The notes beneath the pieces are model-generated. The model had not been told where the DNA came from. It was given only the letters and a program-made list of their open reading frames with translations, and did no database searches. The position numbers were made by a program, and so were the translations under genes. From Vicugna vicugna (Eukaryota), in the NCBI GenBank assembly GCA_013265495.1, contig MU057744.1, forward strand, positions 1,887,524-1,951,523: DNA of 64,000 bases, given 5' to 3'. Of the stretch, positions 1 through 52,911 are shown piece by piece (within the stretch, counting starts at the first letter, position 1; each line of letters starts with the position of its first letter).

Positions 1-894
1 GGTGGAGGCTAGGAGAGGGCTGTAATGGGAAACAAACCCAGAAGTGTTTCTTTCTCTATTTCTGTATTCTCTGAGTGCCTTCAAATGCTTAGGGAGAGAG
101 ACTAACTCAAAATCACACGTATGAAGTAGAAAATTGCAAATGGTATTAAGGAGAGCAGAGGATACGGGGAGTTTATCCAGTTGACAGGCCGCAAAGGCTG
201 ATCTGATGAAGCGCCACTGCCCTGTGGCCTGCGGGAGGAGTGGTGGGAAGAGCATCTCAGACCGAGGGAACGGCACAGACGAAGCCTGTGGTGTGGGTGG
301 ACAGGGTGAGAGGAGAAACTTGCCGAAGGCCAGAAGGCTGAGGGGACAGAACTGGGAGGTGGGCTTTGAGGAGGCCAGACAGAAGAACTTCTTGCAGGTA
401 GGTAAGGGGCAGTGGGACTTCGTGCTCAGTCAGAGTGTGAGTTTGTAGTCGCTGCTTTTTACATCTCAGTTTCATGCCTAGAAAGCAGGGATGATGGCGC
501 CTCCCATACAGAGTGGTTGCTGAGACACGTGCAATGGCTGCATGTCAGTCACTCACGTGTAGTGGAAACTCAGTACATGGTCATCATTGCTTATTTTGAA
601 ACCTACTGGGGACCAAACTGCATTAGATGACAATTTAAGGGCATTTCATTTTGAGAAAATATTGAGACTAATTCTAAACCATTGAAAATTAGGTGTGTTT
701 TCCATACTCACACACACACGTACTGCAGAGTGGAACTTGAGAGGCAGGCAGACTGGAGTGGAGCTGATGGCATGGCTGTGGCTGTTGGGGACTTGTTGCA
801 TGTGGCCAGAACTCTGCTGTTGCAAAGACTCGGCACTCACCCATCCCCCGGAAGATTCCACTGTGTAGATCTGTTTTCTTTTCCTTTCTTTCAG

Positions 895-27862: not shown

Positions 27863-27913
27863 NNNNNNNNNNNNNNNNNNNNNNNNNNNNNNNNNNNNNN
27901 NNNNNNNNNNNNN
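27863..27913. other. Assembly gap (51 N)
   Basis: Run of n characters. Confidence 0.99.
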
Positions 27914-27992
27914 NCCCCCCCCCGATTTTTCTCTTTTCTTTCATGACTTTAACAAGTGACTGAGAAGCTGCTTTATGTGTTGCGTGATCCAG

Positions 27993-38830: not shown

Positions 38831-38965
38831 TTGGAGGACCCCGCCATTCGGTGGCAGATGGCCCTTTACAAAGACCTACCAAACAGGACTGAAGACACTT
38901 CCGACCCCGAGAGGACAGTTGAGAGGGTACTGGACATAGCAAACGTGCTCTTCCACCTTGAGCAG
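38831..38965 (+). CDS. RYR2: RYR2 exon ~74 (135 nt) LEDPAIRWQMALYKDLPNR...IANVLFHLEQ
   Basis: tgcag acceptor, CAG|gttaga donor. Confidence 0.97.
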
Positions 38966-41709
38966 GTTAGACTCTGTGTCAGCTCTCTCACATTTGCCTT
39001 AACTGCATAGAAACATTTTAAAAACCGATGTGTGCAGCTTGTGAACTGTGGGCCAGAAAACATATGGTCAGCATGTTCATTACAGAGAATCTGTGACTGA
39101 GGAGCGCTTAGTCGCTAATCAGCGTCGTCTCCAAGCCTTGATTTTTGGAGCAATAGGATCGATGGTGTGTTTTGGTGGATCAAGGCCTCTGTTTCATTGT
39201 CTTTTTCAAAGTATTTCCAAAAGTAAACACATCATGAGGATTGTAAACTCAGTTTTAAATCACCCTAACAAAAATGTCAGGGCTTACACCTGATTTCAAG
39301 TGTTTTATACTTGGGTCATTTTTCTCTGCTGCTCATATCAATGTTGAGATGCTTTCTTTCCCTGGCTTAATGTTTGATTTTTTTCTGTCAGTTGCTTAAC
39401 CTTTCTTTTAAATATTTTGAAGCTAATTTTTCCACAAGATCAGCAATAAATTATATTTAGAGAAGAGCAATGCATTGCTGTTAAAACCACCTGAGAACAG
39501 TGTTTTCATATCGTTTCCCAGTTGTATTCCATTTTGATCTACAAAGCTCACTGTGTGTTTGATTTTCTTCTTTATCACCTCTGCTCAAGAGTTCCCAAAA
39601 CAATAATTCCTGAACATTATCAGTCGGTGGGTTACGTTTTGGGGTGAGGGATCTCCTGGCTTAGGTAAACTATCTGCAGTGTGGAGACAGTCCCTGTTTC
39701 CCATGAGGTCCATTCAGGAAGATGACACCATGAGGGTGCTCAAGGTGGACCCCAAAGTGTGCTCTGTCACTGGCCGAATTGGTTCACGCTGAACATAAAA
39801 TGACAAAGTGTCCCATGGCATCTCAGAAACGCTGTCATCTGAATGCTTTGCAGAATATTTCAGTGTAGCAATAATAAACATGTTTCTTTGGTTCCTATTT
39901 TATATTATCTGATCATCTCCCATCCCTGGCCTGGCCAGTTAAATAAGCTAAGGATACATCTAATGTAGTATCCTCTTAATTTCCTTCTTGCTTACTCAGA
40001 TGCCCCAAATGCTAATCACTTCTCCAGTGCCAAGCAGTTTATCACTCGAGCTGATGAGATTAAAGTAGGAGACTCTTAAACCACATTCTGTAACACCATA
40101 ATATTAATAAAATATTCTTTAGAGAACTCAACACTTCTAAGTGTTTTCATGATATATTAAATAAATACAAGTTAGCATCCAGTCAGCAGATGACGAAGTT
40201 TGAGACAATGGAATGTTAAGTGATACATAAAGTCATGGAGTTTGTCTCCAGAGTGCTGTGCACATGTAAGAAGACTGCTCAGTGTTAACGGAACGGCTGC
40301 TGGAGAGCCACCTCTGAGCCCATGACTCTGTCAGCAGTTTCTAACCCTCCCAGGTTTTCATGGACATATCTGGATTTGCATGAGTGATTTTAGATACACT
40401 AAGTGAGGTTCCTTGAAATCTGACTGTGCTTTACTATTTTACTATAGTCATACGTTGCGTATGCATAGATCTGTGTGATCGTGATGATGTCGTCTGTAAA
40501 GCAGTGAGGTTCCTCTTACTAAGCAGTTGGTCTGTGCTCTGCCATACGGCAGCATTGTCCCCTGGGAGTGCGGGCACTGACTTCTGTTCCTCTGCTCAAG
40601 CAGAGGGTGTGGACAGGTAGATAAACATGTAATGATGGAGATGTGCTGGGATACCAGATGTACTGACAAGAGAATAAAAGGGGCCCACGCTTGATCTAGT
40701 TTGACTGACGGGGCCCCTGTGTAAATCCTAAAGAAAGAGGAATCACCCAGGGAAAGGGAAGAGGGTCAGATGTTAGTTAAGGCCATGTATGCTTCAGAAT
40801 GTTAAGGATACCCACGTGTGAAGAGGAAAAAACAAAGAATGTGAGTAAAAAGAACTAGTCGATTATCAAAGAATAGGAAACAGTGGAAGTATGTTGAGTT
40901 CGTGCCTTTAAACCTCTGTTCTCGTGTTAATTTGTAACTAAGCCGTAGAACAGTTTGTAAAGAATATTTCTGGGTGCCCAGGAAATAGTTCATTTAGTTT
41001 ATCTCCAGTATCAGCGACCTTTGCAAATGAACACTCTGTACTGCACACCCGGTAATTTTTCTCGTGAGAGTAAGCTGTCTCCTTGGAGTTTTCGGGTCGT
41101 CACACTCTAGTCAGGCTGACACGTCCACACACCCAGGCATTCAGACGGGTACAGGACACATCTCGGCGTCTCCCCTTGGCTCACAGATCTTACTGACATC
41201 TATTTACTGGACGTACAGGGAAAACCACTTATTTAAGGTCTTCCCTTGGGTAGTAGAATGCTCTGCGAAATGGTAGACTTCATGGAAGCAGAGGCCTTTT
41301 CTCCCGTGTTCACGCTTCTGTCTTCAATGCCTCGAACTTAACTGTGTTGACTGTCACCCTCGCTGATCAGACTGCCCTGTTCTAGTTGAACAGCACTACT
41401 CTCGATTCTGTTTTCACCTACAACGTTAAGTCTCAAACATGTTGTGTTTCGCTTAACATAACGGAGAGGAAAATCGACGTTGATAATCATCAAAAAGTGT
41501 CTCCTGATCCAGCGGAGGGAAGAGGATCACAGAGACAGGGGCCTTCAGATTGTACTGGCTGCTTTGTTAAAGGTTCCAAACCACTGTCATCCAGACATTC
41601 TTAATGTTTTCTTCAAGCATGATTACATTTGTATTTTGACCCTTTACTGCCAAGGATAATAAATTTAGTTTTTCTGTTTTAGCTAACGTAACATTTTCGT
41701 TTTTTCCAG

Positions 41710-41745
41710 AAATCTACATCAATGCACCGGAGATATTACAATCTG
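41710..41745 (+). CDS. RYR2: RYR2 exon 75 (36 nt, alternatively spliced) KSTSMHRRYYNL with non-canonical GG donor
   Basis: gctaac branch-like motif and tttttccag acceptor. The peptide aligns with the 12-aa RyR2 segment between ...FHLEQ and VEHPQ... It is followed by ggaagt instead of gtaagt. Confidence 0.88.
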
Positions 41746-42468
41746 GGAAGTACAGTGTTCAGTTGCCTAGAAATTACTAATTAATGTAGAATTACATGTT
41801 GAAATTTTTTCTAATACTTACAATTAATCTCTTTTTCTTCTTGAAATTCCAAGCACCATTAGCTAAACAGATAGCTTGCTTGCAACATTTACTGCAACGT
41901 CTGAATTCTCGTTTGTCCCCGTCTAACAGAACAATTATATGTTTTAACATTTTTGCAAAATTGAATTCTTTTTCTCACTCCTAGTAATGTGTTCATGAAG
42001 ACTCGTCATCTCTCCATCCGGTTATGTTACAAAACAGTTGACTTTTCTTTAGGATTTTCTTTAGCTGCTCTAACGCACAATAAAATTGAGTATATAAACA
42101 AGCATAGGTGAATTTTTCTGAGTAGAGAGAAAATATGTTTTGGCACCATATCCAAATTCTGTAAAGGATGCAGAATGGTTTTATATAGAGTGGTTTTCTA
42201 TTTCTTTGAGTTTAGAGATGACATAGCTTCTAAAGTGCACATTATTGGGAAAATACTATATTTTTACTAAAGAACATAATGTAACATCTGAAACTATTTC
42301 AGACTGAGCATTTGGTAGCTTTTAGGATGTGGGTTTGTCTATAAGAATTGTGGGGTCCCCTTGGAATTGAAAGTCTAGAAGTCTTCAGCTAAAAGGTGCA
42401 GCTGCTGAACACTGTGTGTCTGAGGGCAGTTGGGGTCTGAGTGTGTGCGCCTTTGTGTCCTCCCTCAG

Positions 42469-42581
42469 GTGGAGCATCCGCAGAGATCCAAGAAGGCCGT
42501 GTGGCACAAGCTGCTCTCCAAGCAGAGGAAGCGGGCGGTGGTGGCCTGCTTCCGGATGGCCCCCTTGTACAACCTGCCGAG
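42469..42581 (+). CDS. RYR2: RYR2 exon ~76 (113 nt) [37 protein letters not shown](R); calmodulin-binding helix
   Basis: ctcag acceptor, AG|gtcaga donor; canonical RyR CaM-binding motif. Confidence 0.97.
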
Positions 42582-52887: not shown

Positions 52888-52911
52888 GTCACAGGATCGC
52901 AGCGCAGCAAG
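52888..52911 (+). CDS. RYR2: RYR2 24-nt alternative cassette exon VTGSQRSK
   Basis: Pyrimidine tract + gaag acceptor, AAG|gtaaaa donor, phase 0/0. Peptide is identical to the known RyR2 24-bp splice insert between SFE and EKEMEK. Confidence 0.93.

Follow-up and report, generated by a model that had tools for sequence, protein, structure and literature searches.

Few functional 5′ splice sites are, to our knowledge, as rare as GG donors. The GG donor of RyR2, the cardiac calcium-release channel, governs the placing of 12 residues directly before the calmodulin-binding helix. The exon concerned, exon 75, is described in two reviews from the discovering group, which credit the feature to Takasawa et al. 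2010 (PMC9033130, PMC8553518). In the passages that concern exon 75, both reviews report a rat islet RyR2 cDNA without the 7 residues of exon 4 and without the 12 residues of exon 75, and likewise for human and mouse islets. The short RyR2 form, which has no exon 75, was found as mRNA in islet, cerebrum, cerebellum, pituitary, and adrenal, and the long form, which includes the exon, was found in the heart (atrium and ventricle) and also in the kidney (PMC9033130, PMC8553518). The rat RT-PCR bands measured 144 and 108 bp and were therefore 36 bp apart, according to a figure legend (PMC8553518). The donor of intron 75 is given as ‘gg’ in rat, mouse, and human, and the remaining RyR2 introns are given as gt/ag (PMC9033130, PMC8553518).

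The heart form and the islet/brain form are described in this literature as differing in cADP-ribose sensitivity and in their effect on insulin secretion. In human 1.1B4 cells, editing of gg to gt lowered glucose-induced insulin secretion, as the review recounts from its ref 69 (PMC9033130). Impaired insulin secretion in mice expressing exon-75-containing RyR2 is cited by PMC12109991. The first-pass annotation of our locus had described RyR2 exon 75 as an exon with a GG donor and with tissue-specific skipping of the islet/brain type, and these publications confirm that such a literature exists for rat, mouse, and human. A text search of the literature returned no paper naming ‘RyR2’ together with ‘GG-AG’. 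For human, rat, and mouse, the GG donor of RyR2 exon 75 is on record in the literature; we describe its orthologue in one more mammal, within a window of 64,000 nucleotides (the whole stretch of DNA that was analysed).

We know of neither conservation nor cassette-exon control for the GG-AG junction of CPSF3. That testis-specific junction belongs to an unrelated gene and shares with the RyR2 site the GG-AG dinucleotides and a tissue-restricted use (PMC4176328). In the table of the same survey of human non-canonical splice sites, ‘GGAG’ occurs 161 times (PMC4176328). The GA-AG introns of the FGFR genes and ITPR1, cited in the survey, resemble the window site in having a U2-like donor that is wrong at +2, an otherwise consensus-like context, evolutionary conservation, and proneness to misannotation, but their +2 base is A, whereas the window site has G (PMC4176328). 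The FGFR site reportedly requires a canonical GT that lies 6 nt further upstream (PMC4176328), whereas the GTs near the window site are weak and lie 4 and 9 nt downstream. Independently of the two reviews, supplement file 3 of the survey lists an RYR2 junction with an 882-nt intron, the dinucleotides ‘GAGG’, and the class ‘Non-U2/U12’; it was covered by 47 reads from thyroid, brain, colon, and heart and was unannotated in GENCODE v17 (PMC4176328).

Gene identity and the exon 75 slot

By tblastn and exact-word chaining, 20 RyR2 exons were placed in the window, covering approximately residues 2965–3741 of camel RyR2 isoform X1. The 20 junction-spanning segments were identical to this isoform at 745 of 748 residues, and the Camelus RyR2 proteins were the closest named proteins to the gene. 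The window probably comes from a mammal near Camelus. An assembly gap of 52 N (27863–27914) lies in an intron between two of the RyR2 exons.

The RyR2 exon preceding the cassette (38831–38965, forward strand, 135 nt) ends with ...VLFHLEQ (CTT GAG CAG|gt) and has a GT donor at 38966, as obtained from its translation, PDB phmmer, and the junction analysis. Against solved chains, this exon scored 83 bits with RyR2, 45 bits with RyR1, and 30 bits with RyR3. The exon following the cassette (42469–42581, forward strand, 113 nt, its 3′ end taken from the junction analysis) begins with VEHPQRSKK after ...ctccctcag and encodes the calmodulin-binding region. Its top score was again RyR2, and 6y4o, 2bcx, and 6xxf, which contain short calmodulin-binding peptides of RyR2 and RyR1, were among its PDB matches. 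Judged by these matches, the window gene is RyR2, and neither RyR1 nor RyR3.

Between these two exons, the solved RyR2 chains of 4968, 4967, and 4966 aa hold exactly 12 residues. The 4968-aa chain carries KSTCMRRRYYSL and the 4967-aa chain KSKRVGRRHYCL, each joined straight to VEHPQ, and the solved RyR1 and RyR3 chains had zero residues in the exon 75 slot. In the window, the slot is occupied by an open 36-nt cassette exon at 41710–41745 (forward strand), which runs from phase 0 to phase 0 and translates as KSTSMHRRYYNL. The window letters at the cassette are ...cgttttttccag|AAA TCT ACA TCA ATG CAC CGG AGA TAT TAC AAT CTG|ggaagtacagtgttc.... The peptide was 11/12 identical to the Camelus insert KSTSMRRRYYNL, which sits at the same place and is annotated in several isoforms. 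By sequence, inclusion of the cassette places a 12-residue basic-aromatic linker (K-S-x4-R-R-Y-Y-x-L) eight residues N-terminal of the calmodulin-binding helix.

The intron upstream of the cassette (38966–41709, forward strand) is GT-AG, and its junction 38965|41710 agreed with camel isoform X1 at 28/28 residues. The cassette acceptor reads ...cgttttttccag|AAATCT with the boundary at 41709|41710. Upstream of the AG, 15 of 20 bases are pyrimidines, which is ordinary for the RyR2 gene (range in the window 10–18). The motif CTAAC at 41683–41687 is a candidate branch site, and together with the pyrimidine tract and the AG it spans 41683–41709 on the forward strand.

The locus is like the gg/ag intron 75 of human, rat, and mouse RyR2 in its gene, its 12-codon cassette before the VEHPQRSKK exon, the G at +2, the AG acceptor, and the GT-AG neighbours (PMC9033130, PMC8553518, in the parts that treat this intron). 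The presence of an orthologous exon, proposed in the first-pass annotation, was borne out by the 12-residue slot directly before VEHPQRSKK in RyR2 and by GG at +1/+2. The peptide differs from that of human exon 75 (KSTSMHRRYYNL here, KSKRVGRRHYCL in human), and the intron has 723 nt here, whereas the human intron measures 0.8 kb and the rat intron 1.0 kb. Tissue pattern and junction use are described in the literature for rat, mouse, and human.

The RyR1 and RyR3 paralogues of the same genome were located on other contigs, at C1298:1056899-1057608 (forward strand) and C9176:1059172-1059881 (reverse strand). Their equivalent introns are about 470 nt long and GT-AG. No cassette-like frame was found in these two introns, whose best scores (12 and 17) did not exceed the shuffle medians (18 and 17).

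The donor of intron 75 and competing readings

For each pair of neighbouring exons, we tried every donor and acceptor position and kept the best fit to the camel protein. A GT-AG solution was among the best for 19 of the 20 junctions of the window, the lone exception being 41745|42469. The gt/ag rule reported for the rest of the gene held at all 19 other junctions of the window, which covers part of the gene. The exceptional junction gave three equal-scoring registers, GG-CA, GG-AG, and GA-GG, which yield an identical mRNA. Of these, GG-AG is the sensible choice, because the AG then stays behind the pyrimidine tract (...tgtcctccctcag). In this register, intron 75 covers 41746–42468 (forward strand, 723 nt, GG...AG).

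After the exon end AAT CTG, the window reads GGAAGT at 41746–41751 on the forward strand, with GG at +1/+2 (41746–41747); the letters and coordinates are as the first-pass annotation had given them. The reference donor consensus is CAG|GTAAGT, and a G at +2 is strongly disfavoured in U2-type donors. The donor CTG|GGAAGT matched this consensus at 7/9 positions, including +3 to +6, which agrees with the earlier description of a donor that is consensus-like except at +2. The 19 GT donors of the window had a mean of 6.4 matches (range 5–8). With its consensus-like context apart from the dinucleotide, the site is a U2-like non-canonical 5′ splice site in the sense of PMC4176328.

The nearest GT (41750–41751, forward strand) matched the consensus at 4/9 positions and gives a 40-nt frameshifting exon, as had been predicted; the test reading reached a stop at codon 107. 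The second GT (41755–41756, forward strand) gives a 45-nt exon that is in frame and adds Gly-Ser-Thr. The earlier statement that only the 41745 boundary keeps the frame must therefore be dropped.

It is highly probable that 41710–41745 is the orthologue of the alternatively spliced 12-codon RyR2 exon 75, and that 41746–42468 is a U2-type intron with G at +2 of its donor. The agreement goes beyond chance, because the cassette is 11/12 identical to the Camelus insert at the same place and 19 of the 20 window junctions are GT-AG.

The in-frame GT at 41755 nevertheless allows the cassette to be read as a 45-nt exon (41710–41754) in which the GG is exon sequence, and this form, with a 15-aa insert ending in GST, is found in 11 database models from 10 other species. 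Its donor, ACA|GTGTTC, matched the consensus at only 2/9 positions and falls under the 5–8 range of the window's other donors. In the solved RyR2 chains the slot holds exactly 12 residues, the two rat RT-PCR bands lie 36 bp apart (PMC8553518, figure legend), and the insert is 12 aa long in 113 of the 120 best hits that carry one, so the 45-nt exon is very unlikely; the 15-aa forms look like the product of annotation pipelines forcing a GT. A sequencing or assembly error at 41747, with GTAAGT as the true donor, is hardly credible. GG has been published for human, rat, and mouse (PMC9033130, PMC8553518), Gly (GGN) stood at that codon in 16/16 models of other species reading past the exon, and the assembly has a single copy of the donor region; it is very unlikely that an error would reproduce precisely the oddity of the orthologues. 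When 24 sequencing runs were compared by sampled words of the window, the DNA runs shared 0.86–1.00 and the RNA runs 0.05–0.21 of them, shares that are silent on the junction and on base 41747.

The exact peptide KSTSMHRRYYNL was absent among the 380 protein models examined, so that an annotated product of this very species was not among them, which would suit a conserved-looking relic that is always skipped in the present species. We regard such a relic as very unlikely, since the frame is open, the acceptor, the tract, and the context of the donor show no damage, and the peptide is one residue in 12 off the Camelus insert, which several annotated isoforms contain. The donor box of U12-type introns is purine-TATCCTT, and GGAAGTAC is unlike it by eye while matching the U2 consensus at +3 to +6. 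Recognition by the minor spliceosome was rejected on this ground and has next to no probability, although non-canonical dinucleotides are stated in general to be commoner in U12-type introns (PMC4176328, discussion).

The window junction shows the same GG-AG/GA-GG ambiguity that would turn the RYR2 ‘GAGG’ row of the human survey into GG-AG. We therefore read that row, from its gene, length, and dinucleotides, as human intron 75 with GG-AG shifted one base to the right; the RNA-seq survey apparently registered the junction one base off, as ‘GA-GG, non-U2/U12’ (PMC4176328, supplement file 3). The class ‘Non-U2/U12’ looks like an artefact of the alignment register, and a one-base shift to the left would give GG-AG with a U2-like donor.

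Conservation of the insert and of the GG donor

Two protein searches were made, both shaped by their query and neither gauging isoform frequency: with the query without insert, 119 of the best 120 hits had no insert and 1 had 4 unrelated residues, and with the camel query carrying the insert, all of the best 120 hits had an insert at the site, with a length of 12 aa in 113 hits and of 15 aa in the other 7. Taking all fetched models together, 180 were without insert and 161 had 12 residues, of which 5 were read-ins of intron 74 and not exon 75. The insert-bearing list spans camels, pig, dog, rhinoceros, muntjacs, bats, anteater, donkey, tenrec, lemurs, monkeys, apes, aardvark, and colugo, and also echidna, many passerines, and a turtle. 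Platypus, sloth, armadillo, rodents, and carnivores were further cluster members with the insert. None of the 14 gar, paddlefish, and bowfin models spanning the site had an insert, nor did the single caecilian model; these are models and not proof of absence.

The insert peptide was highly variable between nearly constant flanks (KSTSMRRRYYNL, KSKRVGRRHYCL, KSKYTGRGYFSL, KPTYMGRRYYSM, KSACVGRGYFFW, and RSSKTCQRFFCL). Its length was constant at 12 apart from one 15-aa vole model. This model, Microtus oregoni RyR2 isoform X3 (P0362), has the 15-residue insert KSKYTEYTGRRYFSL, which looks like an internal duplication of 3 codons and not like the GST extension.

Sixteen models ran past residue 12: the 11 15-aa ‘GST’ models (10 species) and five read-throughs (two human, one mouse, one bowhead whale, and one other). 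In 16/16 of them, the next residues were Gly-Ser. As Gly is encoded by GGN, +1/+2 would be GG in those genomes, provided that the models translate the DNA faithfully. This implies that the GG donor is probably conserved across many mammals and placental orders. When the cassette is read on into the intron in the GG register, the window translation runs on as GSTVFSCLEITN*, and the read-throughs start the intron with GSTVFNCLEITN in the bowhead whale and GSTVFNYLETTN in the other model. The three continuations are alike, so the intron start appears to be similar among these mammals as well.

The expectation that gene predictors will often miss this exon was borne out in several forms: 6 of 38 shorter models fused ...HLEQ to VEHPQ, and elsewhere 11 models used the 45-nt exon and 5 models ran on through the donor. 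The lesson for annotation is that exon 75 is routinely lost, extended to 45 nt, or read through.

The window adds one further mammal with the same arrangement, together with an indirect sign that GG is held across placental orders, and no new principle. The first-pass observation is real apart from its claim of a unique frame, and its interpretation is supported. The exon 75 GG donor is real, conserved, and already known; the +2 G was read from the assembly, and use of the junction in the present species would follow from its orthologues.

Going further, the GG donor, rather than being peculiar to a few mammals, might have arisen together with the RyR2-specific cassette over 300 million years ago and act as a switch throughout the amniotes, with regulated weakness, and not the residues, as the selected trait. 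The cassette is missing in RyR1, in RyR3, and in all 14 ray-finned-fish RyR2 models examined. As part of the same joint and doubtful proposal, selection would fix the +2 G, the 12-codon length, and the first intron bases, and the peptide would drift (KSTSMHRRYYNL, KSKRVGRRHYCL, KSACVGRGYFFW, RSSKTCQRFFCL).

A metagenome scan gave three loci (L008–L010) that matched the downstream exon only. In L008, the upstream 1500 bases held no exon-75-like frame, and the upstream exon lay outside the locus. The three loci are contigs of 3.7–16 kb with vertebrate RyR exons (RyR2-like; RyR1- or RyR3-like) and are probably host or prey DNA.

Putative regulation and a neighbouring micro-exon

The good match at −3, −1, +1, and +3 to +6 would make the donor recognisable, and the G at +2 would make it inefficient and slow. 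The default would then be direct splicing of 38965 to 42469, which would skip the 36 nt, keep the frame, and give the ‘islet/brain type’. By analogy with the literature on rat, mouse, and human, inclusion would occur where the cell compensates, e.g., in heart and vessels.

The acceptor at 41702–41709 (UUUUCCAG) and the donor region at 41743–41750 (CUGGGAAG) are partly complementary and pair across the tiny exon in the predicted fold. For the fold of 41690–41810, this acceptor–donor stem was predicted with z = 0.74, and 158/200 shuffles folded at least as well. Local RNA structure as a regulator was rejected, because the fold was no better than the shuffles.

GCATG is an RBFOX-type core and ACTAAT is a Quaking-type core. 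The motif scan around the cassette found one GCATG at 41617–41621 (89 nt upstream) and one ACTAAT at 41776–41781 (31 nt downstream), which are motif matches only. The same scan near the cassette gave no G-runs beyond the donor and no convincing regulatory motif.

Further downstream, a micro-exon of 24 nt lies at 52888–52911 (forward strand). It encodes VTGSQRSK, has GT-AG junctions on both sides, and corresponds to residues 3715–3722 of camel RyR2 isoform X1. More inclusion of a 24-bp RyR2 exon is reported for the hearts of Rbm20 mutant mice (PMC9691496), and the micro-exon in the window is probably that Rbm20-responsive exon.
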